This document shows positions 535 to 50,221 of a DNA stretch of 64,000 nucleotides, one piece after another. The notes below the pieces were generated by a model, which was not told the origin of the DNA, made no database searches, and was given only the letters and a program-made list of their open reading frames with translations. Both the position numbers and the translations under genes were made by a program. The first letter of the stretch is position 1. Every line of letters starts with the position of its first letter. The stretch is from Patescibacteria group bacterium (lineage in GTDB: Bacteria; Patescibacteriota; Minisyncoccia; Phycocordibacterales; Phycocordibacteraceae). The DNA lies in NCBI GenBank assembly GCA_040388985.1, contig JAZKAU010000002.1:52570-116569 (forward strand), in the 5' to 3' direction.

Positions 535-1272
535 ATGAATCCGCTCCTCATACTCCTCGTGGCAGTCGCGGCGGCTATAGCGACCTTCCTGGGCGGCTCT
601 CTTGCGCTGCGGCTACGCGATAAGCTGCACCTCGTGCTCGGCTTCTCGGCAGGAGCCATTATCGCAGTGGCCTTCTTCGATCTCCTGCCCGAATCCCTTC
701 AGCTCGGTACTGCGTACCACAGCATAGCTACCCTTCTCACGTTTACCGCGCTCGGCTTCTTCCTCTATACCGTTCTTGACCGCTTCATCGTGCTTCATAC
801 GCACCATGATGATGGAGGCGTTCATGCGCACAACCAGCCGAAGCGTGCGATGGTTGGTGCGGGCTCCCTTTCAGGCCACAGTTTCCTCGACGGACTAGCT
901 ATCGGACTCGCCTTCCAAGCATCGGCTGCCGTGGGCGCTATCGTCGCTATAGCCGTACTTGTCCACGATTTTTCCGATGGCATCAATACCGTAAATCTCG
1001 TTCTGAAAAATGGTGGCTCGAGAGCCCTTGCCTTCCGCTGGCTCCTCGCCGACGCGCTCGCTCCGATACTCGGCGTACTCGCCACATTCTTCATACATGT
1101 AGGAGAAGGTGTGCTGTCACTCATCCTTGCCACCTTCGCCGGCTTCTTCCTCTACATCGGCGCCTCAGATCTCCTGCCTGAAAGTCACCACTCACATCCC
1201 AAGGCGCTTACTACTGTCCTCACTCTGTTGGGCGCGCTCGTACTCTACGGCGCGATACATATTGCCGGCTAA
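535..1272 (+). CDS. ZIP family metal (zinc) transporter, ZupT-like
   Basis: Multi-TM protein with HDFSDG and GLAIGLAFQ motifs typical of ZIP transporters. Start moved to ATG 535 (MNPLLILLVAVAAA) because the upstream part of the ORF overlaps the repeat element. Confidence 0.75.
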   Translation: MNPLLILLVAVAAAIATFLGGSLALRLRDKLHLVLGFSAGAIIAVAFFDLLPESLQLGTAYHSIATLLTFTALGFFLYTVLDRFIVLHTHHDDGGVHAHNQPKRAMVGAGSLSGHSFLDGLAIGLAFQASAAVGAIVAIAVLVHDFSDGINTVNLVLKNGGSRALAFRWLLADALAPILGVLATFFIHVGEGVLSLILATFAGFFLYIGASDLLPESHHSHPKALTTVLTLLGALVLYGAIHIAG

Positions 1273-4038: not shown

Positions 4039-4067
4039 TTGACAGTATCAGTACTTTGTTTTAATGT
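4039..4067 (+). promoter_or_regulatory. candidate sigma70-type promoter for TrmB-like gene at 4110
   Basis: TTGACA (4039-4044), 17-bp spacer, TAATGT (4062-4067). Followed by operator-like inverted repeat TGTCGTCGAAAACCGACAAAT (4073-4093). Confidence 0.35.
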
Positions 4068-4109
4068 AAATCTGTCGTCGAAAACCGACAAATCTGTTAC
4101 TATCACCCC

Positions 4110-4916
4110 ATGCTAAGCGACCTATTCAAAGAACTGGGGCTTTCCGAAAGTGCTCACCGCATATATCTCTGGCTGCTTGAAAATGGCACGTCCACGGCTC
4201 GCACGCTTGCCGAGAACCTTGGTCTTCCCCGCCCTTCCGTATATGACCATCTGAACGCGCTCATCCAGAAGGGTCTCGTGCTCGAGCGCGAGGAAGGCCA
4301 TACGAAAACGTTCCAGATAGACGACGTGAAGAATCTTCCGCGACTTCTCGAGGAACGCATGGACGCACTTAGCGAAGAGAAAGCTGCGCTCGAGGTCCTC
4401 CTCCCGCAACTGCAGAAGCAGACCGCATCGGTCGAACCGAAGATACGCTTCTTTTCCGGAGCAGAAGGCGTACGCCAGGTGCTGAATGACATCATGTGGT
4501 ACGAGAATATCGAGACGATGAGCATGTGGCCCATTCGTGAGATGGTCGATCTCCTTGGAAAGGAGTATTTCGAAAAATTAAATCGCAAGCGCATCCCGCG
4601 CGGCATCTTCATACGAGCCGTCTGGCCGGAGAACAAGCGTGTTCCCTTCAAGGACTATCCGTTTCTGGGCACCGGAACCGGCCACTTGCGTGATCTTCGC
4701 ATCGGCCCTAAGGGTATGAGCTTTGATATGGGGTACTGGATATACGCCGACAAGGTCGCCTTCCTGTCGTCGCGCAAAGAGACATTCGGCTTCACTATTC
4801 ATAGCAAGGACTTCGCGGTGATGCTGAAGTCGCAATTCGAGGTCGTATGGGCTGCGTCAAAGCCGGTTAAGCCTGAGCCGCAGCATACCGACGCCTTTCT
4901 CGAGACGGTCAGATAG
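4110..4916 (+). CDS. TrmB-family HTH transcriptional regulator (paralog 1 of 9)
   Basis: N-terminal LGLSESAHRIYLWLLENGTSTARTLAENLGLPRPSVYDHLNALIQKGLV is a TrmB-type winged HTH. C-terminal domain is shared with 8 other ORFs in the window (e.g. conserved ...FEVVWAAS tail). Confidence 0.7.
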   Translation: MLSDLFKELGLSESAHRIYLWLLENGTSTARTLAENLGLPRPSVYDHLNALIQKGLVLEREEGHTKTFQIDDVKNLPRLLEERMDALSEEKAALEVLLPQLQKQTASVEPKIRFFSGAEGVRQVLNDIMWYENIETMSMWPIREMVDLLGKEYFEKLNRKRIPRGIFIRAVWPENKRVPFKDYPFLGTGTGHLRDLRIGPKGMSFDMGYWIYADKVAFLSSRKETFGFTIHSKDFAVMLKSQFEVVWAASKPVKPEPQHTDAFLETVR

Positions 4917-4924
4917 ATTTATCT

Positions 4925-4999
4925 TGGGGCGGCTAGAGAGAATCGAACTCTCGATGCGAGTACCACAAACTCGAGTTTTACCACTAAACTATAGCCGCC
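4925..4999 (-). tRNA. tRNA-His (GTG)
   Basis: Hand-folded cloverleaf. G-1 then acceptor GCGGCTA/TAGCCGC, anticodon stem CGAGT/ACTCG, loop TTGTGGT (anticodon GTG), T-arm GAGAG-TTCGATT-CTCTC, discriminator C, encoded CCA. Confidence 0.85.
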
Positions 5000-5478
5000 A
5001 TGAATGTTTTCCGCTCGCCCTCGTAATGGTGTACCAGAAAATGGCAGTTATGACAAAGCCACGCCAGATTTTCAAGCTTATTATTCTTACGATTCTTGTC
5101 GATATGATGCACCGCGAGTATGCGTTTATCTATAGTTTTACAAAGTCCACACACTTGAGGGAGGTTTGCTCGATTCATGACAGCACGATAGCTACTTTGT
5201 CCGGTCGTAAAATTTTTGTGCCTTTCTGCGACGTATAGTTGGTTTCTCCAACATGTCTGGCAGCTCTTGCTGCAGAAGAACTTCCCGCTCTTGGAACGTC
5301 TAAGATCCTTATTTTGCTTATATGAAATCCTCCCGCATATATCACAGGGCATATTCTTTCCCGTGGGTCTTGCTGTCTTATAACAGGCTACGCTGCAATA
5401 CTTTCCGTTACCCTGCTTAAGTGCAGAAGGCTTGCTGTAAAAGCTAGTCGTGCACACATTACAGGGAACGATCGGCAT
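4984..5478 (-). CDS. HNH endonuclease with N-terminal Cys-rich zinc-ribbon repeats
   Basis: Several CxxC pairs (CNVC, CSVAC, CDIC, CSKSC) then HNH motif HHIDKNRKNNKLENLAWLCHNCH. Last 5 codons (MAAIV-stop) overlap the 5' end of tRNA-His. Confidence 0.8.
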   Translation of the reverse strand: MPIVPCNVCTTSFYSKPSALKQGNGKYCSVACYKTARPTGKNMPCDICGRISYKQNKDLRRSKSGKFFCSKSCQTCWRNQLYVAERHKNFTTGQSSYRAVMNRANLPQVCGLCKTIDKRILAVHHIDKNRKNNKLENLAWLCHNCHFLVHHYEGERKTFMAAIV

Positions 5479-7394: not shown

Positions 7395-7468
<74 letters not shown>

Positions 7469-7895: not shown

Positions 7896-7945
7896 CCGGG
7901 CACAAATGAAAAAGCGCTTGTGAGCGCTTTTTCATTTGTGCCCGG
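7896..7945 (-). terminator. 22-bp perfect inverted repeat / terminator overlapping 3' end of tRNA-Leu(CAG)
   Basis: CCGGGCACAAATGAAAAAGCGC-TTGTGA-GCGCTTTTTCATTTGTGCCCGG. Core GCGC...GCGC hairpin plus U-run downstream of the tRNA on the minus strand. Confidence 0.5.
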
Positions 7946-8022
7946 GAGAGGACTTGAACCTCCACGCCCTTGCGAGCTCTACGACCTGAACGTAGCGTGT
8001 CTACCAATTTCACCACCCGGGC
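7939..8022 (-). tRNA. tRNA-Leu (CAG)
   Basis: Type II tRNA. Acceptor GCCCGGG/CCCGGGC, anticodon stem CTACG/CGTAG, loop TTCAGGT (CAG), T-arm GGAGG-TTCAAGT-CCTCT. CCA not encoded. Confidence 0.85.
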
Positions 8023-8058: not shown

Positions 8059-8790
8059 TCAGAGCGCGACTCCCGTAAATACCTTCTCGAGCGTACCTTT
8101 CGCGACCAGCTCCTCCGGAGAGCCCTGCGCGACTACCTTCCCCTTGTCAAGTATATAGCCGCGCGTGGCGATAGTGAGGAGCGACTTGATATTGTGTTCC
8201 ACCACGACGATGGATGTCCTGCGCTTCTCGTTTATATCCTTCACGAAGGCGAATATCTCTTTCACGACCTTGGGAGCCAGCCCGAGCGACGGCTCGTCGA
8301 GCAAGAGCACTTTGGGATCGGTCATGAGTCCGCGCGCAATGGCGAGCATCTGTTGTTGTCCGCCTGAGAGCGTGCCTGACTTCGCGCCGCGCTTCTCCTT
8401 GAGTACGGGGAAGAGTTCGTAGAGATCGCGTATGCGTTCCTTCACGAGCTGCGGGCTTTTGATCCTGAAACCGCCAATCTCGAGATTCTCCTCGACCGTA
8501 AGATCAGCGAAGACGCGACGACCCTGCGGGACGAAGGCTATGCCGCGCTCAACTACCTCGTGCGAGACCGGCGTGAACTTTTGCCCTTCCCAGGACACCG
8601 TGCCTGAAAGAATGGGAGCGAGTCCGAACAGAGCTTTGAGTATCGTCGACTTCCCTGCGCCATTGGGCCCCATCAGGGCAACTACTTCGCCCTCGTCGAG
8701 ATTCACGGACGCGCCGTCGAGCGCTTTCACGCCGCCATAGTGGACGTGGATATCATGCAGCGACAACAATGGTTCCTTGAGTTCTTTCAT
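8059..8790 (-). CDS. livF: branched-chain amino acid ABC transporter ATP-binding protein LivF-like
   Basis: Walker A GPNGAGKST, signature LSGGQQQ, Walker B LLLDEP. Typical LivF length. Confidence 0.85.
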   Translation of the reverse strand: MKELKEPLLSLHDIHVHYGGVKALDGASVNLDEGEVVALMGPNGAGKSTILKALFGLAPILSGTVSWEGQKFTPVSHEVVERGIAFVPQGRRVFADLTVEENLEIGGFRIKSPQLVKERIRDLYELFPVLKEKRGAKSGTLSGGQQQMLAIARGLMTDPKVLLLDEPSLGLAPKVVKEIFAFVKDINEKRRTSIVVVEHNIKSLLTIATRGYILDKGKVVAQGSPEELVAKGTLEKVFTGVAL

Positions 8791-9521
8791 ACGCCTAAGT
8801 ATGCCTCGATCACTGCCGCGTCACTCAGTACGTCCTGCGGCGTGCCTTCCGTAAGGAGCTTACCCGTATCCATCACGATGACGTGATCGCAGAGTTCGCG
8901 GATGAGCGCCATGTCATGCTCGATGAGCACGATGGTCTTCCCCTGCTCTCGCAGCTCTTTCATGATTCCCGATACGAGCTTCACCATCTCCGGAAAGAGC
9001 CCCGCATAGGGCTCGTCGAAGAGGACGATGTCGGCGCCTGTGGCGAGCGCCCGCGCGATTTCAAGGAGTTTACGCTGACCATAGGACAGCTCCGCCGCAT
9101 TCGCGCTCCGCTTCTCCCAGAGTCCTACGCGCTCGAGCACTGTTCGCGCGCGCTCGATATGCGCGCCGCTCGGTCGTTCGAAGAGCGAACCGAGGATGCT
9201 CCGGCGCGTGAGCGCAATGATGATATTATCGAGCACCGTCATCTGTTCGAATATGCGCACATTCTGGAAGGTGCGGGTGATGCCCAGCTTGAAGACTTCG
9301 TAAGGGCGTATGCGAGACCGTTCCTTCCCTCCTTCAACTACTACGATTCCCCCATCCATCCTATGGATACCGGTGAGAACGTTAGTGAGCGTAGTCTTCC
9401 CCGAGCCGTTTGGCCCTATCACGCCCGTTATCTTCCCTTTAGGAATAGAGATGGAAAGCCCGTTCACGGCTTTCACGCCGCCGAATACTTTAGCCAGGTT
9501 CTTTGTCTCTAGCGCAGCCAT
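8787..9521 (-). CDS. livG: branched-chain amino acid ABC transporter ATP-binding protein LivG-like
   Basis: GPNGSGKTT, LSYGQRKLLEIARAL, LFDEP. Overlaps livF by 4 bp (operon). Confidence 0.85.
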   Translation of the reverse strand: MAALETKNLAKVFGGVKAVNGLSISIPKGKITGVIGPNGSGKTTLTNVLTGIHRMDGGIVVVEGGKERSRIRPYEVFKLGITRTFQNVRIFEQMTVLDNIIIALTRRSILGSLFERPSGAHIERARTVLERVGLWEKRSANAAELSYGQRKLLEIARALATGADIVLFDEPYAGLFPEMVKLVSGIMKELREQGKTIVLIEHDMALIRELCDHVIVMDTGKLLTEGTPQDVLSDAAVIEAYLGV

Positions 9522-9545: not shown

Positions 9546-10301
9546 TTAGGGCTTATCGTCAGGCCCTATCGGCACGGCGTCTTCCCATACTGCATCGAAA
9601 TAATATCTGAACATCGTCACCATATCTCGGTCTCGAATCTCGATAATGCGAGGCTCGTTACTCATGATCTGCAATATCACCGTGTCATGGATGATATTGA
9701 AGTTACCTATAGGATTTGAACCTTTCTGCCAGAGCCGATATTCCGTCAGATCAGGATACCGCCGCAGGAGTTCCTGCTCGTGGTCGGTTATCTCGAAGTG
9801 AATGGTCTTCCAGATGATGCGTTTCTTCTCGCGCAAATCCATATACTCTCGTACGCCGTCTTCTCCAAGCAGTTTCGTCCATATCTCATGTGAAGGCACG
9901 CCGAAGCAGTAATCGACGGTTCCTTCAGGGAACCGTTCGAGCGAACTCAGCCAATACGCACGGTAGCTATCGACGCCTTCATAGACCGTGATCTGTTGCT
10001 CGACCTGTTGTCGATACTGCTTGATCTCCTTTATCACCTCATCAGCGATCTGCTCTCTCCGTTTCAACATCGTACGTATGCTGTCAGGCTCGGTGATCTG
10101 GAACCACCATACTCCGCGCTTGCTTATCTTGGTCACGAATCCCTTGCGGATGAGGGTCTCAAGGGCCTCATATACCACGTTCCTATGTATATCGAGCTTG
10201 GCGATAATCGACCCTGCCTTAGAAGAGCCGCTCTTTATGAGCGTCTCGTAGATCTGAGATTCATTCTTTGTCAGTCCCAGGGCCTGAAGATTCTCTATCA
10301 T
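9546..10301 (-). CDS. TrmB-family HTH transcriptional regulator (paralog 2)
   Basis: LGLTKNESQIYETLIKSGSSKAGSIIAKLDIHRNVVYEALETLIRKGFV HTH. Paralogous C-terminal domain. Confidence 0.7.
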   Translation of the reverse strand: MIENLQALGLTKNESQIYETLIKSGSSKAGSIIAKLDIHRNVVYEALETLIRKGFVTKISKRGVWWFQITEPDSIRTMLKRREQIADEVIKEIKQYRQQVEQQITVYEGVDSYRAYWLSSLERFPEGTVDYCFGVPSHEIWTKLLGEDGVREYMDLREKKRIIWKTIHFEITDHEQELLRRYPDLTEYRLWQKGSNPIGNFNIIHDTVILQIMSNEPRIIEIRDRDMVTMFRYYFDAVWEDAVPIGPDDKP

Positions 10302-10509
10302 TTTGTCATTACAAATACAACAACATAAATATACGCCATTTCAACCAACAAGCAAGCCATTCTATAGCGTCCTGGCGAGCAGTTCTGTCACTCAGAATCG
10401 TTTGATGTGACTTCGCGATTTAGGTTTCCTTACACGGTCTGAGCCCTCATTCCTTAGGGACTCATATAGAACCAGCCGCTGGCTGAGCTTATAGGCGTAA
10501 TCAACCATA

Positions 10510-12795: not shown

Positions 12796-12873
12796 GAACT
12801 TGACTTTACTTATTTTGTGTCTCTATGTATATGTGTCGTCGACAGTCCGACAACTCAGATATATAGTGTCTAT

Positions 12874-13650
12874 ATGCTTAAGGACACATTCGCCGAACTC
12901 GGGCTCTCAGAATCCTGCTATCGGGTCTACGCTACCCTGCTTGAATACGGCCCTTCTTCAGCCAAACAAATATCCGAGCGTCTCGAGCTGAACCGTCCGT
13001 CTACCTACGATTACCTGAAAGCGCTTACCAATAAAGGGTTGGTCATGGAACGCTTCGAAGATGCGAAAAACCTATTCCAAGTCGATGACCCGAAGCAAGT
13101 GACGCGCCTCTTGGACGAGCGCATCGAACAGTTGGCAGTGCAGCGCAAGCAGGTGGCACTTGAGATACCCGCGCTCATGAAGCATGCGGACTCCGTTGAC
13201 CCTACGTTCAAGTTCTATACCGGGAAAGAAGGCGTCCGGCAGGCACTCAATCAGATCGTGTACTCGGGCGAAACTGACAGCATCGCCATGTGGTCCATAG
13301 AGGACGTCGTGAACCTTCTCGGCGGCCCCGAGATGGTCGACATCGTGAAGAAACGCGTCCAGAACAAAGTGTACGTGCGAGGGATCTGGAGCTATACCGA
13401 TAATCTCGAGGACATGAATCGTAAGTTCAATCCGACCGTCGCCGAGGAGTCGCTACGTGAAGTCAGGATGGCGCCCAAGGAGATGCAGAATCTCAGCATG
13501 GGGTACTGGCTCGCCGGGAACACCGTCGCCTTCGTCTCATCCAAGCGGGAAGCATTCGGCTTCGTGCTTCGCAGCCGAGACTTCGCCGACTTCCTGCGCT
13601 CGCAGTTCGAGATGGTCTGGCAAGCTTCGACCCTTATAGTAAAAGACTAG
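12874..13650 (+). CDS. TrmB-family HTH transcriptional regulator (paralog 3)
   Basis: MLKDTFAELGLSESCYRVYATLLEYGPSSAKQISERLELNRPSTYDYLKALTNKGLV. C-terminal ...LRSQFEMVWQAS. Start set to ATG 12874. Confidence 0.7.
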   Translation: MLKDTFAELGLSESCYRVYATLLEYGPSSAKQISERLELNRPSTYDYLKALTNKGLVMERFEDAKNLFQVDDPKQVTRLLDERIEQLAVQRKQVALEIPALMKHADSVDPTFKFYTGKEGVRQALNQIVYSGETDSIAMWSIEDVVNLLGGPEMVDIVKKRVQNKVYVRGIWSYTDNLEDMNRKFNPTVAEESLREVRMAPKEMQNLSMGYWLAGNTVAFVSSKREAFGFVLRSRDFADFLRSQFEMVWQASTLIVKD

Positions 13651-13654
13651 GATC

Positions 13655-14521
13655 CTAGAGCTTGAACTTCCCTACGAGCCCCTGCGGACGATAGAGCATG
13701 AGAAGGACGAGAAGGAGGCCATAGATAAGCTGACGCATCTGAGCGGCGATATCTGTCGAGAAGCCGACGAAGCGCAGCGCCTCCGGAAGCAGGACCAGGA
13801 CGAGCGCGCCGAGCACCGCGCCGCGAAGCGTCCCGAGGCCGCCAAGGATGATGATCGAGAGCATGAAGATGGATTCAGGAATATTGAAGGAGCTCGGATC
13901 GATGAAAGTGATGTAGGAGGCGAAAAGCGCACCCGCCACTGCCGCCATACCCGCGCTGAGTACGAATATAAGGAGCTTGAATCCTGATGTGCGGTAGCCG
14001 AAGACCGAGAGCGCCTCTTCGTCTTCACGTATGGCTTCCAGGGTGCGCCCGAAGGACGACTGCGTGATGAGCCTTCCGAAGGCGTAGACGATGGCCAGCA
14101 GTAGAAGCGCAAGGAGCAGGAAGAAGGCATTGTCCGAGAATACGAAGCCGAATAGTTCGGGACGGCTGATGCCCGGGATGCCGAGCGGACCGCGCGTGAG
14201 GCCCTGCCAGTTAAGGAGTACTGAGAAGACGATGACGTTGAAGCCGAGCGAACCGAGCGCATAGTAGTCATCGCGGAATTTCGAGAGTACGAGACCGATA
14301 AGCAGTGCTGCGAGCGCGCTCCCGAGGATGCCGAGCGCAAGGGCGCCGAAGAATCCGATTCCGGTGTTCGTAAGCAATAGCGCGACCACATACGCGCCGA
14401 TGCCGTAGAAGGCTGCGTGCGTCACGGAGAGCAGGCCTGTGTAGCCGACGAGCAGCTGGAGCGATATGGCGAGGATCGCGTAGATAGAGACCAGTATCGC
14501 CAGATGGATAATATATTCCAT
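13655..14521 (-). CDS. livM: branched-chain amino acid ABC transporter permease LivM-like
   Basis: 288-aa polytopic membrane protein with LLSVTHAAFYGIGAY... LivM-type permease core. Confidence 0.8.
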   Translation of the reverse strand: MEYIIHLAILVSIYAILAISLQLLVGYTGLLSVTHAAFYGIGAYVVALLLTNTGIGFFGALALGILGSALAALLIGLVLSKFRDDYYALGSLGFNVIVFSVLLNWQGLTRGPLGIPGISRPELFGFVFSDNAFFLLLALLLLAIVYAFGRLITQSSFGRTLEAIREDEEALSVFGYRTSGFKLLIFVLSAGMAAVAGALFASYITFIDPSSFNIPESIFMLSIIILGGLGTLRGAVLGALVLVLLPEALRFVGFSTDIAAQMRQLIYGLLLVLLMLYRPQGLVGKFKL

Positions 14522-14524
14522 ATA

Positions 14525-15400
14525 TCAGATGCGCTTCTTCCCCAGTATGCCCTGGGGACGGAAGAGGAGGAACAGGATGAGCACGGTGAAGGCAATGGCG
14601 TCTTTCCATTCGCCGGATATCTGCCAGATGCCGAAGTTCTCTGCAAAGCCCAGCAAGAAGGCGCCGAGGAATCCTCCGTAGACGCTGCCGATGCCGCCGA
14701 TTATAGCCGCGATGACGCCCTTGAGGAGGATGAGGAAGCCCATACGCGGCTCGATACCCGTATCCATGCCGGCGAAGACGCCGGCGAGTCCGGCGACAGC
14801 GGAGCCGATGATGAACACAGCCCCGATGATCGAATTGGTGTCGATGCCCACGATCTTCGCGACTTCTTCGTCGTCGGAGACCGCGCGTACCGCGCGACCG
14901 AACGACGTCTTCGTGAGCACTAGTCGCAGCGCAATGAGGACAACGACCGAGGACCCCAAGATGATTGCCTGGACGCTCGTCATGACACCGCTTCCGAAGT
15001 GAATGATATGTGTCGCGCCCGTAAGCATTGCTAGCGTCCGGAACTGGCTCGTGAAGAGCATGGCGATGAGGGCTTCGACAGCCGTAAAGGCGCCGAGCGA
15101 CGCTACGAGAAGTACCAGATTCGAGGCACGCCGAGCGCGTAGCGGCCGGAAGATGAGGCGCTCGAAGCCGTATCCGACTAGGGCCGCAGCCGCCACTGCG
15201 CCAATCACCGCGACCCACACCGGCGCGCCAAGCGTACTCCCTAGGTAGAACGCAGTGTACCCGCCCACTGCAGCCAGGACGCCGTGCGCGAGGTTGAAGA
15301 ACCGGGTTGCGCCAAAGACCAGGTTGAATCCCATCGCCACCAGCGCATAGAGCGAGCCCGCGATAAGACTGTTAACGATGAGCTGCGGGACGATGTCCAT
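14525..15400 (-). CDS. livH: branched-chain amino acid ABC transporter permease LivH-like
   Basis: MDIVPQLIVNSLIAGSLYALVAMGFNLVFGATRFFNLAHG is the canonical LivH N-terminus. Confidence 0.85.
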   Translation of the reverse strand: MDIVPQLIVNSLIAGSLYALVAMGFNLVFGATRFFNLAHGVLAAVGGYTAFYLGSTLGAPVWVAVIGAVAAAALVGYGFERLIFRPLRARRASNLVLLVASLGAFTAVEALIAMLFTSQFRTLAMLTGATHIIHFGSGVMTSVQAIILGSSVVVLIALRLVLTKTSFGRAVRAVSDDEEVAKIVGIDTNSIIGAVFIIGSAVAGLAGVFAGMDTGIEPRMGFLILLKGVIAAIIGGIGSVYGGFLGAFLLGFAENFGIWQISGEWKDAIAFTVLILFLLFRPQGILGKKRI

Positions 15401-16594: not shown

Positions 16595-16706
16595 AATCCA
16601 TGTAGCTATTTGTTAATAATCCACTGACGGAAATGCTATTGATTATATTGATTAGTGTCAAGAAATGTAGTATATTGTTGGCATTAGCCGACAACGATAC
16701 TAAACG

Positions 16707-17492
16707 ATGGCCAAGAACATACACGACGACTTCGCCGAGATACTAGAGTCCATCGGACTATCCGGACCCGAAGTACAGGTCTTCACGCTCCTCCTCGAGA
16801 GTACGGAGCCCATGCGAGCCACTCCCCTCTCGCGGAAGCTGCGCATTAATCGCACGACGCTCTACGGTCTACTAAAATCTCTGACCGAAAAAGGCTTGGT
16901 ATCGTCTACCGATGAACGCGGCGTGCTCTGCTTCCAGTCCATACAGCCGGAGCTTCTCGTCGACTACATCGAGCGCGCAAAGGAGCGGCTTTCTAAGAAT
17001 GCTGAGCGCATGCGCACGCTCCTCCCGGCGATCATGAGTTCCCGGAAGTCGAATCCGAAGTATTACCCCCAGATCCAATTCTTCGATGGCGTCGAAGGTA
17101 TCAAGCAGGTATACGAAGATACCCTTCGTAACAACAGATCGAAGACGATGCACGGGTTCACTGACTACACGGCAGTACTGGACTGCATGGGGCTCGACTG
17201 GGCCGGGTACTACATCAAGAAACGGAGCGAGATGAACGTCCAGTCCTACACGATCGCTCCTGATTCCGTGAAAGCGCGCGACGCGAAACGACGCGACAGG
17301 CGAGAGCATCGCATTACCAAGATATTCCCGCCCGGCTACACCTTCGATATAGAGATAGCGGCGTATGACGATCGAACGATACTCGTATCGTTCGACGCCG
17401 AGCACCCGCTCGCGGTCCTTATCATCGACCAGAAGATAGCGGACACCATGCGTTCCCTCTTCCGATACGTAGACGATACTCTTCCCGCATAA
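16707..17492 (+). CDS. TrmB-family HTH transcriptional regulator (paralog 4)
   Basis: HTH ...RATPLSRKLRINRTTLYGLLKSLTEKGLV. C-terminal ...MRSLFRYVDDTLPA. Confidence 0.7.
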   Translation: MAKNIHDDFAEILESIGLSGPEVQVFTLLLESTEPMRATPLSRKLRINRTTLYGLLKSLTEKGLVSSTDERGVLCFQSIQPELLVDYIERAKERLSKNAERMRTLLPAIMSSRKSNPKYYPQIQFFDGVEGIKQVYEDTLRNNRSKTMHGFTDYTAVLDCMGLDWAGYYIKKRSEMNVQSYTIAPDSVKARDAKRRDRREHRITKIFPPGYTFDIEIAAYDDRTILVSFDAEHPLAVLIIDQKIADTMRSLFRYVDDTLPA

Positions 17493-17582: not shown

Positions 17583-18713
17583 TTATTGCGGAACGGTGAC
17601 TGCCTGTGCATTCTTTACGATCTTCACGTCGTAGGTCGCAACCTTCAGATCGCCACTCGAGTCGAAGCTGATATCCGGAAAGGAGACACCGGCTTTGTAA
17701 TCGAGAGCTTTGAGACCAGCGATAATGTCTTTGGAATCAGTTCCCTTCTGTGCGATCACCTGTGTGAGCATCTTGAGCGCATCGTACCCGAGCGGGGTAA
17801 CGATGTTGATCACCGTATCTCTTCCGTTTAATGCTTCTACTTTCGACTTGAAGTCCTCAGGACTCCCGACTGCGCCGGTAACGAACATCACGCCTTCCGC
17901 TGCAGGCGAGGTCAGGAACTCTTTCGCGATGAGCGCGTCTCCTCCGAACACGGGCGTGGTCATGCCAAGGTCGCGGAACTGCTGCGTTGCGATTGCTGCA
18001 AGTGCCGGATATGCCGGCATATAGATAAGGTCCGGCTTAGCTGCCTGTATCTTTGCCGCTACCGACTTAACGTCAGTCGCGTCCTGTGCCACGCCTTCAT
18101 TCATGACCACGGTGCCGCCGAGTTCGGTAAAACGCTCGTTAAAGACTTTTTGTAGCCCTTGACCCCAGTCGTTCTGAACATACATCACGGCCACCTTTCT
18201 CTTTCCCAGCGTGTTGTAGATGTACTCTGCCGAGAACCTCCCTTGGAAAGTATCTGTGGGATAGCTGTTGAATATCGAATCATCCCCTCCGGTAAGGCCG
18301 GGGGCAGACGCGCCGACAAGAAGCACCGGGATATTCGCAGCGCGTGCGATGGGTATTGCGGGCCCCGCCGCCGCTGAGCAGACCGGACCGATGATTGCGG
18401 TGACTTTGTCGACGCTAATCAGCTTCTGGAATACAGAGACACCGGTCGAGTCGCATTTATCATCCTCATATACGAGCTCGACCATGCGTCCCTTGATACC
18501 TCCTGCGTCGTTTATTTCCTTGAGTGCCAGTTCAAGTCCAGCTCTCCCGGCCTCACCATAGCTTGCCGCCTCCCCTGAGAGCGGCATAGAGACTCCTATG
18601 CGTATAGGGCTGGTATCAGGTGCAGGCTTACCTCCCTTGAGGAGCAACCAACTCCCAACGATCACCAGGACCATGACTACGACTGTCCCGAGCGTCTTCT
18701 TATTCTTGTCCAT
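17583..18713 (-). CDS. ABC transporter substrate-binding protein, LivK type (SBP 4)
   Basis: Signal/TM. IGVSMPLSGEAASYG motif. 376 aa. Confidence 0.8.
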   Translation of the reverse strand: MDKNKKTLGTVVVMVLVIVGSWLLLKGGKPAPDTSPIRIGVSMPLSGEAASYGEAGRAGLELALKEINDAGGIKGRMVELVYEDDKCDSTGVSVFQKLISVDKVTAIIGPVCSAAAGPAIPIARAANIPVLLVGASAPGLTGGDDSIFNSYPTDTFQGRFSAEYIYNTLGKRKVAVMYVQNDWGQGLQKVFNERFTELGGTVVMNEGVAQDATDVKSVAAKIQAAKPDLIYMPAYPALAAIATQQFRDLGMTTPVFGGDALIAKEFLTSPAAEGVMFVTGAVGSPEDFKSKVEALNGRDTVINIVTPLGYDALKMLTQVIAQKGTDSKDIIAGLKALDYKAGVSFPDISFDSSGDLKVATYDVKIVKNAQAVTVPQ

Positions 18714-18816
18714 AAATTCCGACAGGTATTACTAGTGGTATGCCTGCAAAATATACCTATCTTGACAAGAGTCAATGGCTTGTAGCATAATTGTTGATAT
18801 AATCCAACAACACGAC

Positions 18817-19602
18817 ATGGCTCAACAAATACAAGCTACTTTGACAGGCATATTCGAGAACCTCGGACTCTCATCCAGCGAGATACCTGTTCTCCTCTTC
18901 CTGCTTGAAAGCGCGAACGGTCTGCGCGCCACTGAGATAGCGCGCAAGACCCGTGTGAATCGCACGACGCTCTACGGCATATTGAAGAGCCTGACTTCCC
19001 GGGGCCTCGTATCTTCTTCGGAGGAGAACGGCATCATGCGCTTCCAATCCATACAGCCGCACCAGCTCACCGCCTATATCGAAAGCGCCAAGCAGCGACT
19101 CGAGAGCGATACGAAACGCTTGGATCAAGTCATTCCTGCGCTTGCGCATGCTCGCAAGGCTAAAGACGAGCAATATCCGCAGATACAGTTCTTCAGCGGC
19201 GTCGAAGGTATCAAGCAGGTATACGAAGACACCCTGCGGGATAACCCCTCGAAGGCTATATATGGATTCTTCGACTACGAGGCGACGCTCAAGCTTATGG
19301 ATACAGAGTGGCCTAATTACTATATTAAAAAACGAACCGAAGCAGGTATCGAGTCGCACACTATCGCGACTTATAGCCCGCTGACGCGCACCTTGAAGGA
19401 GTTCGACAAGGATTATTTACGCGTAACGAAGGAGTTCCCCGAAGGATTCTCCTTCGCCATGGAAATCAGCGCTTACGGAGATAAGACGATGCTCATATCG
19501 TTCAACGAAGATCATCCGCTCGCCATAATCATTAAGGATGCGAGGGTAGCGGAGACGATAAAGACTCTCTTCCGGTATATAGACAGCACGCTGCCAGATT
19601 GA
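18817..19602 (+). CDS. TrmB-family HTH transcriptional regulator (paralog 5)
   Basis: MAQQIQATLTGIFENLGLSSSEIPVLLFLLESANGLRATEIARKTRVNRTTLYGILKSLTSRGLV. C-terminus IKTLFRYIDSTLPD is close to paralog 4. Confidence 0.7.
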   Translation: MAQQIQATLTGIFENLGLSSSEIPVLLFLLESANGLRATEIARKTRVNRTTLYGILKSLTSRGLVSSSEENGIMRFQSIQPHQLTAYIESAKQRLESDTKRLDQVIPALAHARKAKDEQYPQIQFFSGVEGIKQVYEDTLRDNPSKAIYGFFDYEATLKLMDTEWPNYYIKKRTEAGIESHTIATYSPLTRTLKEFDKDYLRVTKEFPEGFSFAMEISAYGDKTMLISFNEDHPLAIIIKDARVAETIKTLFRYIDSTLPD

Positions 19603-19637: not shown

Positions 19638-20423
19638 TTATTGTGCGCCTACCCACGACAACTCGAACATCATTCGCATCATGTTATGTATTGTTGGGTC
19701 CTCGATGATCACGCCGCTCGGCGTGTTGTTCTCGATATTCACGATAGACACCTTGTTCGTCCCGTAGACCGTAATCTCGCTCTTGTACGGGAATTGTTTT
19801 GCCGGGATATGTCTCATATTCGGCCAGAACTTCTTCGGGAGATGCGCGTATTGTGCCTTGATGAAACCCTTATCTTTTGCCGTATCAGGAACGATGCCGC
19901 GTGTCGTTATGCCGATTCGCCCTTTCTCTTTCTTATAGAACTTAAAGAAGTCTTCGGGGAAGAATTGGTCCAGGTAGCCTGCGTTCGCCCACGCGACCAT
20001 CTCGTACGGCTTTTCGACCCGGACATGGTCTTCATAGATGGAAAGTACTCCCTCCTTCCCTTCGAAGTACGTGATCTTCGGCTTATTGGGAACAAGGGTA
20101 TACATGCCTTCAAGGTCAGGCAGGAGTTCTTCGGCGGCCGCGAGCATTTCCTTGCCGCGCTCGACATTCATCTTCGCGAAGCGCAGCAGCTTCCGGGGCC
20201 GCTCTATCTGGTAATACAACTTCTTCCCTTTCTTGATCTCGGTCACGAGCCCTTTTACCGATAGGTCGAGAAGAATCTTGTATACCGTGCTTCGGTTAAT
20301 GCGTGCGTCTTTTGCAAGCGCAGAAGGATAGGCACCTCCCCGTTCCAGAAGCGTTACATAGACGACGGCAGCTTTATCCGACAGCCCTGCCTTCTTTACC
20401 TTCTCTACCAAGCGATCATCCAT
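19638..20423 (-). CDS. TrmB-family HTH transcriptional regulator (paralog 6)
   Basis: AGLSDKAAVVYVTLLERGGAYPSALAKDARINRSTVYKILLDLSVKGLV. C-terminus ...MRMMFELSWVGAQ. Confidence 0.7.
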   Translation of the reverse strand: MDDRLVEKVKKAGLSDKAAVVYVTLLERGGAYPSALAKDARINRSTVYKILLDLSVKGLVTEIKKGKKLYYQIERPRKLLRFAKMNVERGKEMLAAAEELLPDLEGMYTLVPNKPKITYFEGKEGVLSIYEDHVRVEKPYEMVAWANAGYLDQFFPEDFFKFYKKEKGRIGITTRGIVPDTAKDKGFIKAQYAHLPKKFWPNMRHIPAKQFPYKSEITVYGTNKVSIVNIENNTPSGVIIEDPTIHNMMRMMFELSWVGAQ

Positions 20424-20605
20424 GGCCGCATACTATGGCTCAAATCAAAATGTGTCAATTCGTAGGAACAGATTTGCGTAAAATGGACTGAAATCCTGTA
20501 TCTGCTTGTATGTATAGAATTATTTTGTTATTTCAAAATACCAAATTTGACATTGATGATACAAATGTGGCGTTACCGTCTACTCACCTAATTGTCCGCG
20601 CTGCT

Positions 20606-23071: not shown

Positions 23072-23857
23072 TCACGAGCCTGACACGGCCTTCTCACTAC
23101 GCTTCGCTTCTTTCCAGGCTAGCTCGAAAACTTTCTTCATAGCATGAGCAATCTCGGCGCTTTCTATAATGATGCCGAGCTTATCGCGCCATGAGGCGAT
23201 CATTATCTTATTGTCATAGATCTCGATGTCAGGAGTTATGTCGAATTCCTCTTTAGGTATGATGGCTATGTCACGCTTCTCATCCTTGTTATGTGAGGCG
23301 CGCTCAAGCGACGCAGTAGTCTCTGGGACGATGCCGCGAATGCTGATCCCTTTCTCTGCTCGACGTTCATAGTATCTAGGGAAATAGTTTCCGAGCGTCG
23401 CGTGCATATCTTCGTATGCGGCATACGCCACGATCGGTTCAGTTGCGGTCAATGTATCTTCGTACACTTCCTTAAGCCCCTCAATACCTTCGTAGAATCG
23501 TACTTGCGGCCGGTCCTGGACCGTATGCATCGCCCTTAGCTGCGGCAAGAACGCTTTGGCGGTACGCAACTGTTGTTCCGTCTCGGATAATCTGCTATCG
23601 AGAAGCGCGATAAGCTTATCCGGAGACTCGGCGGCATATTCTTCCTTCGGTTCTTTCCCCGACAATCGTACCAGATCCTTCTGAGCCAAGGCAGCGAGTA
23701 TGTCGTAGCCGGTAGTCCTGTTTATGCCGGCCTTACGTGATATCTGGGTTACAGTCCCGCGACCGAGCTTCAATATCGCCAGATATACGCCAACCTCTCT
23801 CTTAGAAAGTCCTAACGAGATAAGCGTCTTTACGATATTCTGTTGTCCCTTTTCCAT
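23072..23857 (-). CDS. TrmB-family HTH transcriptional regulator (paralog 7)
   Basis: LGLSKREVGVYLAILKLGRGTVTQISRKAGINRTTGYDILAALAQKDLV. C-terminus MKKVFELAWKEA. Divergent from radical SAM gene. Confidence 0.7.
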   Translation of the reverse strand: MEKGQQNIVKTLISLGLSKREVGVYLAILKLGRGTVTQISRKAGINRTTGYDILAALAQKDLVRLSGKEPKEEYAAESPDKLIALLDSRLSETEQQLRTAKAFLPQLRAMHTVQDRPQVRFYEGIEGLKEVYEDTLTATEPIVAYAAYEDMHATLGNYFPRYYERRAEKGISIRGIVPETTASLERASHNKDEKRDIAIIPKEEFDITPDIEIYDNKIMIASWRDKLGIIIESAEIAHAMKKVFELAWKEAKRSEKAVSGS

Positions 23858-24033
23858 ACGATAACCATACACTACGCTCTATATTTGTGTCAATATTACT
23901 CCACAATATACATTATATCCTTTATATAAAGGATATTCGAGTGTTCTTTTATTGACATAATTGACAGTAAGGAATAATATTGTATCGGGTGCAACTTGAC
24001 ACCAACCGATAATACAAACCAAGGAGGTCAATC

Positions 24034-25360: not shown

Positions 25361-26113
25361 CTACCGGCTCGGAAGCGAGTCCCAGATGACCTTGAAGAGG
25401 TTCTGTTGCATGCGCACGAGGGCTTCGGTCTCTATGACGATGGTCGTGACGGGATTGGTGAGCGGATGGATGACTATCTTACGGGGCGCGATAGCCATGT
25501 TTGCGTCGATAGTCGTTCCTTCCGGCAGTATGCGCACTTCTTCGCGATAGTTCTTCTCTGTCTTCTTATATGAGCGCGCGGTCTCTGAAGACACAAGGAT
25601 GACCTTGGTATGCACGTCTATGCGCAGCCGCCGCTCTATGAACGTCTTGAAATATTCCTTGTCGAAGTGATTCCACCGGTCCGGGTCGCCGATGACATAG
25701 TAGTCGTCACCACTGCGGAGATCCTGAAGCAGCTCATCATACGCACTTTTCATAGCTTCAACTCCCGAGTGATACCGGATGATGGAGTCGTTACCGCGCA
25801 GCGTATACAAGGCTTCGAGCTCCGGGAAGAACGACTGCAGCGCGTTCTTCTGCTCATCGAGCATGCGTTCGAGGCGTGCAGGGTTCTCCGCTACCGGAAA
25901 TTCCTTGAATCCTCTCTGCTCGACGGATACCAGTCCCTTTGCCTTCAGAGTCTCGATGACGTGGTAGATAGTCGTCCTCTTCACACCCGACTGGAGCGCA
26001 ATCTTTAGGATAGTGGTGGGGCCAAGCTCCAGCATGGCCAGATATACGGCTGCTTCGTGGTCTCCGAGCCCCGCGTGAGCCAGCATTCTCTGGAGTGATT
26101 CTCTGTTTTGCAT
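25361..26113 (-). CDS. TrmB-family HTH transcriptional regulator (paralog 8)
   Basis: AGLGDHEAAVYLAMLELGPTTILKIALQSGVKRTTIYHVIETLKAKGLV. C-terminus ...QQNLFKVIWDSLPSR. Confidence 0.7.
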   Translation of the reverse strand: MQNRESLQRMLAHAGLGDHEAAVYLAMLELGPTTILKIALQSGVKRTTIYHVIETLKAKGLVSVEQRGFKEFPVAENPARLERMLDEQKNALQSFFPELEALYTLRGNDSIIRYHSGVEAMKSAYDELLQDLRSGDDYYVIGDPDRWNHFDKEYFKTFIERRLRIDVHTKVILVSSETARSYKKTEKNYREEVRILPEGTTIDANMAIAPRKIVIHPLTNPVTTIVIETEALVRMQQNLFKVIWDSLPSR

Positions 26114-26267
26114 GATATGTCGAAAGCTCGGACAAATTTATTTCCTTATTTATAGCATTGTTTTTGTCGTATTTATATAATCTGTCGACAATTTTGGCGA
26201 AATAGATATACGCCCCCACCATTAGCGCTACGTACTACCCTGGTGCGCCTAATACCAACGAGAATAT

Positions 26268-26954: not shown

Positions 26955-27407
26955 ATTTAGTATCGGTGCCCGAAATATATCAGCATTCGAATCAGTTGAT
27001 AAAAGAGTTACATAATTGGCTAGCGTTCGGGAAAAGTTTAAAAGGAGAGAGTCTGCCGCAAGAGCAGTATGGGAAAAAGGCGGCCGTACACATGGTACGA
27101 CCGCCCGATTTCAGAATGTTCATTAGAGAAGCTTCTTGTTTCAGCTTGCTGAAGCTGAGTTAGGTCTGAGAAGACCAAAACTTCCTGGCCGATTGTCGAA
27201 AGGAGGGATAAGACGGCTTATTTCTTACCAGTCCTAGTACTCTTCGAGAGGGCTACAGCAACCCAACTCTCTCAGGTGAACAGCGCGCTCACCCTTTGAA
27301 TCACTGTATATAAAGGTATCATAGTATGTAAATTTGTCAAGCTCTTCCAACTGTGGTTCCACCATCCAATTGAGTCGCAGTATTGACTTGTCTAACTTGG
27401 TGCCCCC

Positions 27408-27482
27408 ACCTGGAATCGAACCAAGATCAAGAGCTTAGAAGTCTCCTGCTCTATCCATTGAGCTATAGGGGCGAAGCGAGGT
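27408..27482 (-). tRNA. tRNA-Arg (TCT)
   Basis: Acceptor GCCCCTA/TGGGGGC, D-arm GCTC-AATGGATA-GAGC, anticodon loop CTTCTAA (TCT), T-arm CTTGG-TTCGATT-CCAGG, encoded CCA. One mismatch in the anticodon stem. Confidence 0.75.
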
Positions 27483-29266: not shown

Positions 29267-29352
<86 letters not shown>

Positions 29353-33773: not shown

Positions 33774-33845
33774 GCTCTCGTCGTTCAATGGATAGGACGC
33801 GACCTTGCGGAGGTCGTAATGATGGTTCGATTCCATCCGAGAGCA
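33774..33845 (+). tRNA. tRNA-Arg (GCG)
   Basis: Acceptor GCTCTCG/CGAGAGC, D-arm GTTC-AATGGATA-GGAC, anticodon stem CGACC/GGTCG, loop TTGCGGA (GCG), T-arm GATGG-TTCGATT-CCATC, discriminator A. Confidence 0.75.
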
Positions 33846-34252: not shown

Positions 34253-34324
34253 GCTCTCGTCGTTCAATGGATAGGACACTTCCCTCCGAAGGAAGAAATG
34301 CTGGTTCGATTCCAACCGAGAGCA
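34253..34324 (+). tRNA. tRNA-Arg (CCG)
   Basis: Same acceptor and D-arm as 33774-33845 (GCTCTCGTCGTTCAATGGATAGGAC). Anticodon stem CTTCC/GGAAG, loop CTCCGAA (CCG), T-arm GCTGG-TTCGATT-CCAAC (one mismatch). Confidence 0.7.
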
Positions 34325-38508: not shown

Positions 38509-38581
38509 TGCGCCCGGATGGGCTCGAACCATCGACCCACTGCTTAAAAGGCAGTTGCTCTACCGACTGAGCTACGGGCGC
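38509..38581 (-). tRNA. tRNA-Lys (TTT)
   Basis: Acceptor GCGCCCG/CGGGCGC, D-arm GCTC-AGTCGGTA-GAGC, anticodon stem ACTGC/GCAGT, loop CTTTTAA (TTT), T-arm GATGG-TTCGAGC-CCATC. Confidence 0.85.
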
Positions 38582-49223: not shown

Positions 49224-49435
49224 GACTTCCTCCTGAGATGCGTATTGCGTTGTGAAATAACTTATTCGACAGAATATCCTAACTGATGTCTAATCTACGT
49301 TCGATATACTTATATGTCAAGTATATCTAACAGTGCTTGGATGTATAGATATACTAATATATGGCTATTTTTACGTATACAAGTAGTTGTTATATTTTAT
49401 TGACACAATTATGACCTTAGATATATACTTACTTT

Positions 49436-50221
49436 ATGGAAAAGACATCTCAAAAACTGAAGGAGTCGCTTACTTCTCTAGGACTATCTCAGAAGGAAGC
49501 GGCCATCTATATTGCTCTCTTGGAGCTTGGTAGATCGACCGTATCGCAAATCTCGCGGAAGGCGGCCGTGAACCGCGCGACCGGCTATGTCATCCTCGAT
49601 TCCCTTATCACTAAAGGGCTCGTCAGTATCTCCGGCAAGGAGCCGAAGCAGGAATATGTCGCAGAGTCTCCCGATAAGCTGCCTGAGTTTTTCAGGAACG
49701 AGCAGAAAGAAGCTCGAGAGAAGGAGGAGAAGGCACAGGAGCTCTCGCTTCAGCTGAAGTCGATACAGAAGGTCGGTGATCGGCCGCAAGTACGTTTTTA
49801 CGAGGGAGAGGAAGGGATAAAGGCCGTCTTCGAGGATTCCCTGACTGCGACGTCAGGAAAGATAATTGCTTTCACCTCTATAGAGGACCAGCATACGTCT
49901 ATTCCAAACTACTTCCCCGAATACTACCAGCGCCGCAAGAGGAAGAAGATATTCATGCGGTCGATATTTCCCGACACGCCCATGGGTATCGAGAGACAGG
50001 GAGCGAACGAGAGCGAGTATCGCGAGTCAGTCCTCGTTCCCAGAGAGATGTACGGCATCCACCCTGCTATAAACGTATACGACAACAAGCTTATGATCGC
50101 TTCCTTTCGCGAAAAGCTCGGTATCCTCGTGGAAAGCGCCGAGATCGCGGACGCGATGAAGAAGATATTCGAACTCGCGTGGATCGGCGCGCATTCCCTG
50201 GAAACACAAAAAGAAACATGA
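49436..50221 (+). CDS. TrmB-family HTH transcriptional regulator (paralog 9)
   Basis: LGLSQKEAAIYIALLELGRSTVSQISRKAAVNRATGYVILDSLITKGLV. C-terminus MKKIFELAWIGA is closest to paralog 7. Confidence 0.7.
   Translation: MEKTSQKLKESLTSLGLSQKEAAIYIALLELGRSTVSQISRKAAVNRATGYVILDSLITKGLVSISGKEPKQEYVAESPDKLPEFFRNEQKEAREKEEKAQELSLQLKSIQKVGDRPQVRFYEGEEGIKAVFEDSLTATSGKIIAFTSIEDQHTSIPNYFPEYYQRRKRKKIFMRSIFPDTPMGIERQGANESEYRESVLVPREMYGIHPAINVYDNKLMIASFREKLGILVESAEIADAMKKIFELAWIGAHSLETQKET

Follow-up and report, generated by a model that had tools for sequence, protein, structure and literature searches.

The window, i.e. the whole stretch of 64,000 nucleotides that was analysed, encodes nine proteins with a TrmB domain (PF01978), all of which lie above the gathering score in a Pfam search (42 to 56 bits; cut-off 25.6). 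Their coordinates are listed in Table 1 together with those of the inverted repeats (dyads) in front of them, three of the start codons having been reassigned by alignment. The preliminary description of this DNA had counted six TrmB paralogs with a dyad and two with a weak one; it missed the minus-strand paralog starting at 20423, whose own dyad is conserved in a related locus (L011), and all nine genes carry such a site. The paralogs are 21 to 52% identical and their upstream spacers are otherwise unalignable. Most dyads sit in a spacer of 78 to 212 bp that is common to a divergent gene, usually one encoding a Peripla_BP_6 solute-binding protein (SBP) of a Liv-type ABC importer. Five SBP genes are divergent from TrmB genes and a sixth is found downstream of 23857.

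The LivHM permease and the LivGF ATPase of the window are each encoded by just one gene pair (8059-9521(-), 13655-15400(-)), and the six SBP genes, most of them paired with a TrmB paralog, have this one LivHM/LivGF set in common. The SBP/TrmB/Liv layout is syntenic in three other assemblies (L009-L011). Eight tRNA genes were also identified, one of which (4928-4998, minus strand) overlaps an ORF at 4984-5478(-) with a weak HNH match.

Table 1. TrmB-like genes, SBP genes, dyads and tRNA genes; positions refer to the window unless a related locus is named
Feature	Position	Strand	Remarks
TrmB gene, family A	4110..4916	+	PF01978, 56 bits; full-length match to TrmBL2
TrmB gene, no family letter	9546..10301	-	PF01978
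TrmB gene, family B	12874..13650	+	PF01978; start is ATG 12874, not GTG 12817
TrmB gene, family C	16707..17492	+	PF01978
TrmB gene, family C	18817..19602	+	PF01978; start is ATG 18817, not 18775
TrmB gene, family D	19638..20423	-	PF01978
TrmB gene, family E	23072..23857	-	PF01978; start is ATG 23857, not GTG 23872
TrmB gene, no family letter	25361..26113	-	PF01978
TrmB gene, family E	49436..50221	+	PF01978
Peripla_BP_6 SBP genes (six)	starts 10510(+), 12795(-), 16594(-), 18713(-), 20510(+), 22923(-)		
Putative operator, family A, TGTCG-TCGAAAAC-CGACA	4073..4090		upstream of 4110
Dyad TGTTG-N9-TGACA	10304..10322		minus-strand gene sense; 1 nt before 10301(-); 11/12 match
Putative operator, family B, TGTCG-TCGACAGTC-CGACA	12834..12852		upstream of 12874
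Putative operator, family C, (T)TGTTGG-N6-CCGACA(A)	16676..16693		upstream of 16707; 12/12 match
Putative operator O1, family C, (T)TGTTG-ATATAATC-CAACA(A)	18792..18809		upstream of 18817; 12/12 match
Second dyad O2, TGTCGGAATTTATGGACA	18707..18724		minus-strand sense; on start codon of divergent SBP gene 17583-18713(-)
Putative operator, family D, TGTTC-N8-TGACA	20453..20470		minus-strand sense; upstream of 20423(-)
Putative operator, family E, TGTGG-N8-TGACA(CAA)	23888..23905		minus-strand sense; upstream of 23857(-)
Dyad TGTCC-N7-CGACA	26118..26134		minus-strand sense; 4 nt before 26113(-); 10/12 match
Putative operator, family E, TGTTA-N8-TGACA(CAA)	49388..49405		upstream of 49436
Distant-paralog dyad loci	L009 ~1023-1050(-), L010 ~5053-5080(-); L009 ~18850-18905, L010 ~18470-18520		
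tRNA genes (eight)	4928-4998, 7395-7468, 7939-8022, 27401-27472, 29267-29351, 33774-33845, 34253-34324, 38509-38581		

The nine proteins are 250 to 268 amino acids long with an N-terminal PF01978 winged helix, and no C-terminal Pfam domain, including PF11495, was matched in any of them. A 58-member family profile matches TrmBL2 (PDB 5BOX) over essentially its full length (E 1.7e-9), and TrmB (3QPH) over the DNA-binding part only (residues 3-111). An AlphaFold (AF2) model with a pLDDT of 92 consists of the winged helix, a 30-residue helix (residues 75-105) and an alpha/beta domain. Its best Foldseek matches are to TrmBL2 (E 1e-12), and the C-terminal part is matched by the TrmB sugar-binding domain 2f5t (E 1.4e-6) and by PLD-fold nucleases. 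The two-subdomain sugar-binding effector domain that marks TrmB sensu stricto (~340 aa, Regulator_TrmB) is lacking from the window proteins. Based on the profile, the model and the Foldseek matches, they are therefore short, TrmBL2-like members of the TrmB family without the sugar-binding subdomain.

A TGT-N11-13-ACA dyad is present less than 50 bp from the start codon of every window TrmB gene (9/9). The core across these sites is TGT-N12-ACA, with N11 at 26118 and N13 at 10304 and 12834, and the flanks are family-specific. All nine sequence strings reported in the preliminary description lie where it placed them, with distances to the start codons correct to within 1 nt. Its dyads are thus real, but the motif it proposed, TTGTNG-N7-9-CNACAA, does not hold as a single consensus. 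For the dyad at 10304..10322 the support comes from the window alone; the sequence of the one at 26118..26134 likewise comes from the window and is compared only with that of a distant relative (L009:4273). The TrmB gene at 18817 has two dyads, O1 in front of its own start and O2 on that of the divergent SBP gene, 85 bp apart. A second dyad was also looked for at the SBP partner of 16707 and none was found there.

Several other repeats occur in these spacers. What had been described as a second copy at 26182-26192 is an 8-bp palindrome without a spacer, TGTCGACA, and is a different kind of site, with an architecture unlike that of the TGT..ACA dyads. The same TGTCGACA also forms the left end of TTGTCG-N16-CGACAA (26156-26190, minus-strand sense), in which perfect 6-bp arms are separated by 16 nt; this inverted repeat lies upstream of 26113(-) and faces the Vut_1 transporter gene 26268(+), which is divergent. 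Between the TrmB gene 23857(-) and the radical-SAM/SPASM gene 24034(+), at 23915-23936, there is a perfect palindrome of 22 bp, ATATCCTTTATATAAAGGATAT, which has no relation to the TGT..ACA dyad. Upstream of the TrmB gene 49436, at 49299-49355, two inverted repeats overlap (GTTCGATATACTT-N7-AAGTATATCTAAC and AGTATATCTA-N16-TAGATATACT), near the divergent radical-SAM gene 47778-49223(-).

The pattern TGTYG-N8-9-CRACA has four matches in 64 kb, all four upstream of TrmB genes, as compared to a mean of 0.41 in dinucleotide shuffles of the whole window, where none of 300 trials reached four. The longer pattern TTGTYG-N7-9-CRACAA, at 11/12 positions or more, has five matches in 64 kb, all within the 1,227 bp of TrmB-upstream spacers. 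These spacers are AT-rich (36.5% GC vs 52% in other spacers) and were therefore also shuffled on their own, which gave a mean of 0.028 matches and a maximum of 1 in 500 trials. An unbiased enumeration of 3-mer and 4-mer dyads in the nine spacers put TGT-N12-ACA first without reaching significance by itself: as a 3-mer dyad it occurs in 6 of the 9 spacers, a borderline result when taken alone, given that 6 was reached by 15 of 200 shuffles.

Orthologous and syntenic loci were fetched from other assemblies, mostly via exact-protein look-ups; searches of genome contigs with one protein and of metagenome contigs with a two-protein alignment yielded a single locus each. In ~100 kb of non-redundant foreign sequence there are 13 non-redundant matches at 11/12 or better, eight of which sit 2-20 bp before the ATG of a TrmB homolog and two where the divergent SBP gene of that spacer starts. 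Another is found 288 bp before a Buchananbacteria homolog and is nearly identical in sequence to the window site at 4073. Over the window and 12 non-redundant related loci, TGT-N11-13-ACA occurs between -70 and +5 in 24 of 33 TrmB-like genes, 1 of 142 other genes and 0 of 22 AT-rich controls. The Fisher p of ~4e-21 overstates the case, because orthologs are not independent; the direction of the enrichment is unambiguous. The claim that would have fallen had the dyad been no more frequent at TrmB genes than in other intergenic DNA has thus withstood both comparisons, with the shuffled spacers and with the other genes.

In ortholog promoters the arms of the dyad are kept, and the flanks, the spacers and the distance to the ATG drift. 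The family A dyad (4110; recognition helix PRPSVYD), TGTCG-tCGAAaAc-CGACAAAT, is kept in seven genomes, among them those of Buchananbacteria (L001) and Moraniibacteriota (L016), with proteins that are 53-72% identical. Its arms are invariant and its spacer nearly so, with distances to the ATG from 3 to 288 nt. For a simple dimer operator it is unusual that the spacer (CGAAAA) is conserved almost as well as the arms, and this counts against an operator at this site. In family B (12874; helix NRPSTYDY) the dyad is TGTCGTCGACAGTCCGACAAC; the 21-mer is identical in L009 (79% amino acid identity), where the flanks diverge, and the right arm is also present in L011. Family C (16707 and 18817; helix NRTTLYG) has aTTGTTG(G)-N6-8-(C)CRACAAC, with arms invariant in five sequences from four genomes and freely varying spacers. 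Its O1-type arms are kept in L008/L010, L009 and L011, and the two-dyad layout, with O2 at the SBP start and 84-87 bp between the dyads, occurs in all four genomes examined.

The family D dyad (20423; helix NRSTVYK) is TGTTC-N8-TGACA, and in L011:7908 (48% amino acid identity) the arms are kept and the spacer differs. For family E (23857 and 49436; helix NRtTGY), TGTTr-N8-TGACAcaa, the TGT and TTGACACAA do not vary among six sequences, which come from five genomes and include the orthologs L012-L015 with 64-85% amino acid identity to 49436; the sites at 23884-23906 and 49388-49411, previously taken as weaker versions, are thus not weak. This family (49436 type) is very widespread in Patescibacteria, with 1,607 database matches at E <= 0.001. 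Two of the candidate regulator-operator pairs span several classes of the Candidate Phyla Radiation (CPR), with 159 and 1,607 database homologs. The 26113 type has the helix KRttIYHVIE and N7 spacing; the distant relative L009:4273, with a similar helix, has TGTTA-N7-TGACA 1 nt before its ATG. Compiling 20 sites of the N12 class gives ntTGTtg-N8-tGACAaa, in which TGT and ACA are invariant and a G precedes ACA in 19 of 20.

Two features seen around the family A sites stand apart from the dyad itself. A third conserved TGT element, TGTmAAw (window 4062-4068), lies 8 nt upstream of the left arm in 7/7 genomes (window, L001, L002, L004, L005, L006, L016); it may belong to the -10 or serve a second dimer as an additional half-site. 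In the Buchananbacteria locus (L001 3694-4000) the dyad is found behind a TATAAT box, 288 bp upstream of the ATG. The ~280 nt in between, which include AT repeats of low complexity and a stretch that is GC-rich and hairpin-like, may represent an insertion, a small RNA or a long leader.

Similar recognition helices go with the same dyad type and spacing, and distant paralogs in L009/L010 have different dyads. These more distant TrmB/HTH_20-like paralogs carry conserved TAGTCAT-N6/7-ATGACTA on the start codon and AAATAAC-N7-GGTTATTT upstream. Given the family-wise footprints and the dyads of the distant paralogs, a dyad at each paralog's promoter appears to be the general rule, with half-site and spacing following the family. 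The earlier suggestion that half-site and spacer variation encodes paralog specificity agrees with this, in that the variation seems to track both the paralog family and the sequence of the recognition helix.

One common regulator, either a single TrmB paralog (e.g. of the 49436 type) or an unrelated factor, might instead bind all TGT-N12-ACA sites, or the paralogs might cross-regulate each other extensively. The invariant TGT and ACA with nearly fixed spacing across families A to E would fit this, as would half-sites that differ by only one or two bases between families. However, the family-specific flanks and spacings (N7, N8, N9) are under purifying selection across genomes, the sites move with their own TrmB gene into new contexts (L002, L004, L006, L012-L016) and the core dyad is nearly absent outside TrmB loci, being found at that single one of the 142 other genes. 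A common regulator or extensive cross-regulation is hence rather improbable in our judgement, although the shared TGT/ACA core may permit some cross-binding among paralogs.

Every dyad arrangement overlaps a predicted core promoter element, be it the -35, the -10 or the start site, which would be a position typical of a repressor. Families A, B and C each allow two alternative promoter assignments. In families A and B the dyad comes 4-5 nt after a conserved TTGACn-17/18-TAtnnn (predicted promoters) and so covers the predicted start site. At 4073..4090 the dyad is preceded by conserved TGTAAA and TTGACA-17-TAATGT. A leaderless promoter for 4110 (TACTAT-N6-ATG, with the dyad on its -35) is the other candidate: because the TACTAT is not conserved and the upstream TTGACa-17-TAtTGT is conserved in orthologs, placing this dyad at the predicted start site is preferred to placing it on the -35. 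The 12834 dyad lies 4 nt after TTGACT-18-TATGTA or, alternatively, overlaps the -35-like TCGACA of TCGACA-17-TATAGT-N6-ATG.

In family C the dyad begins at the last bases of the predicted -10, and its spacer resembles an extended -10 (e.g. TTGTTGaTATAAT). Thus the 16676 dyad begins at the 3' end of the -10 in TTGATT-17-TATATT and O1 at 18792 abuts TTGACA-18-CATAAT; back-to-back -35 boxes (TTGACAnnTGTCAA) lie between O1 and O2. For families D and E the right arm of the dyad is itself the predicted -35 of TTGACA-17/18-TAnnnT-N6-ATG, a promoter that looks leaderless. The corresponding sequences are TTGACA-17-TAGTAT-N6-ATG for the dyad at 20453, TTGACA-18-TATGGT-N6-ATG at 23888 and TTGACA-N18-TATACT-N6-ATG at 49388.

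Many other genes of the window also have a -10-like hexamer (TATACT, TACTAT or TATAAT) 6-7 nt before the ATG, e.g. 50240(+), 30745(+), 36742(+), 15400(-), 40055(-), 62585(-) and 63570(-). A Shine-Dalgarno-like GGAG, GAGG or AGGA in -20..-4 is found for 9 of 52 genes other than TrmB and SBP genes and for none of the nine TrmB genes. This suggests that leaderless mRNAs may be widespread in the source genome.

The dyads might also act in RNA, as 5'-terminal or start-proximal hairpins that affect the stability or translation of messages without a Shine-Dalgarno sequence. The dyads of families A and B lie entirely downstream of the conserved -35/-10, so that they would be part of the transcript, and mismatches between the arms mostly place a T (left) opposite a G (right), i.e. 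a G-U wobble in the sense RNA. The hairpin at 16707 is stable as well, at -10.5 kcal/mol (z -3.8). However, the remaining five are weak hairpins of -2.4 to -8.6 kcal/mol, with 15 to 55 of 200 shuffles equalling or beating each, and the fold of -8.6 kcal/mol (12874) does not pair one arm of the dyad with the other. In families C, D and E the left arm would stay untranscribed, since the right arm is the -35 (D, E) or the dyad abuts or contains the -10 (C). The T-opposite-G mismatches in families D and E are explained by the need for the right arm to serve as a -35 box. Moreover, the arms keep a fixed TGT/ACA sequence and not merely their pairing; no compensatory double changes were seen, as the arms are invariant, and an Rfam scan of the window matched only tRNAs and no structured element at the dyads. 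Given the weak hairpins, the untranscribed parts in families C to E, the sequence-fixed arms and an Rfam scan with tRNAs only, we see little chance overall that the dyads work as RNA hairpins, although those of families A and B might. That the dyads arose by chance in AT-rich promoter DNA, or are functionless relics of a duplicated TrmB-SBP cassette, is largely refuted and has next to no probability left: the base composition of the spacers, the plain consensus -35 that forms half of the dyad in families D and E and the borderline 3-mer test speak for it, but shuffling the same spacers does not reproduce the five matches, AT-rich control regions lack the core dyad altogether, and the paralogs are too divergent and their spacers too unalignable for relics, with invariant islands in the ortholog alignments exactly at the arms.

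The dyads are thus likely, in our view, to be DNA operators for the neighbouring TrmB(L2)-like winged-helix regulators. Most likely the palindromes are the regulators' own binding sites, and probably they serve as paralog-specific operators for local autoregulation and control of the neighbouring gene, with a repressive effect. The preliminary description had already read them as autoregulatory operators of dimeric winged-helix proteins, a reading for which the enrichment, the ortholog footprints and the overlap with predicted promoters provide support in silico. Each regulator, presumably a coiled-coil dimer, would recognise the half-sites TGTyr / yrACA, ~13 bp apart from centre to centre, with half-site flanks and spacing (N7, N8 or N9 between the 5-bp arms) specific to each paralog family. 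As the site overlaps the -35, -10 or start region of the gene's own promoter, its occupancy would most likely block RNA polymerase, resulting in negative autoregulation. The same binding event probably also controls the divergent gene, usually that of the SBP, since the spacer is common to both; the second dyad on the SBP start codon in family C supports such control. A ligand bound to the C-terminal PLD-like domain would then release the protein from the DNA. A locally acting, autoregulated repressor with a palindromic operator is a textbook mechanism.

On a broader and much more tentative reading, which we regard as possible but doubtful, the dyads would be what can be seen of a regulatory code that is ancient and common to all Patescibacteria, in which TrmBL2-like proteins, known from archaea as chromatin proteins, diversified into local repressors with sequence specificity. 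One alternative SBP of a single common ABC importer would be gated by each paralog, and the spacing together with one or two positions of the half-site would determine which paralog binds. Operators 84-87 bp apart (~8 helical turns) might let a tetramer loop the DNA and silence both divergent promoters. If this were true, reduced CPR genomes would have in the TrmB family their main transcription network for responding to nutrients.

Patescibacteria (CPR) cannot be grown alone, and to our knowledge almost nothing is known about how they control transcription. In the literature collection searched in full text, no paper combines TrmB with Patescibacteria, Candidate Phyla Radiation or Parcubacteria. 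The interest of the locus lies in the organism, whose group is uncharted with regard to regulation, and in the clean series of paralog-specific sites. The conserved candidate regulator-operator pairs are a concrete test set and could seed regulon reconstruction from metagenomes, and the related half-sites and spacings form a natural series for studying the avoidance of cross-talk between winged-helix paralogs. The layout of the locus also suggests how a reduced genome could switch among six SBPs with one permease/ATPase set.

The DNA sites of archaeal TrmB proteins are palindromes at promoters, and Pyrococcus furiosus TrmB represses the adjacent malE ABC-transporter operon (PMC4158304). The window proteins have in common with archaeal TrmB, TrmBL1, Tgr and VNG1451C the order of a PF01978 winged helix, a coiled coil and an effector-type domain. 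Shared with the archaeal systems are also inverted repeats on or beside core promoter elements, here predicted promoters, and, with P. furiosus TrmB, a gene position beside an ABC-transporter operon, which there starts with the solute-binding-protein gene. For Tgr, autoregulation has been proposed (PMC4158304). The operators described for the family are TACT-N3-AGTA, the TGM TATCAC-N5-GTGATA and TACT-N7-8-GAGTA (PMC4158304), the last of which, from Halobacterium salinarum, resembles the window dyads in overall site length (16-18 bp). The window motif, TGTyr-N7-9-yrACA, differs from these, and because its TGTyr half-sites match none of the described motifs it is new for the TrmB family. Further differences from archaeal TrmB are that the host is a bacterium with sigma-70-type promoters, that the proteins are without the sugar-binding subdomain (no PF11495 match) and that they form an array of nine paralogs, several of them each paired with one Liv-type SBP gene.

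Among other regulators, the arrangement resembles autoregulators of the TetR-tetA type and of the MarR family, in which the regulator gene is divergent from its likely target and one or two palindromic operators lie in a short spacer, overlapping both promoters. There, too, ligand-controlled release is presumed; the protein family is a different one, and the analogy is of logic only. CRP sites (TGTGA-N6-TCACA) share the invariant TGT...ACA core within a dyad. Their spacing is TGT-N10-ACA vs N11-13 here, the neighbouring genes are TrmB-like and not CRP/FNR-like, and the dyads occur at TrmB loci only, so CRP-like sites were ruled out on spacing and context. The best full-length profile and structural match is the archaeal chromatin protein TrmBL2 (TK0471 / PF0496; PDB 5BOX, 5BPD), which has the same length and domain order. 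TrmBL2 binds DNA in a largely sequence-unspecific manner, prefers AT-rich or A-tract DNA and has no defined palindrome (PMC11840125). As it is the closest structural relative, this AT-preferring, unspecific binding counts against reading the dyads as operators. However, whereas TrmBL2 coats DNA without a defined palindrome, the window proteins are associated with discrete, conserved and family-specific dyads at their own predicted promoters, which argue for specific DNA binding.
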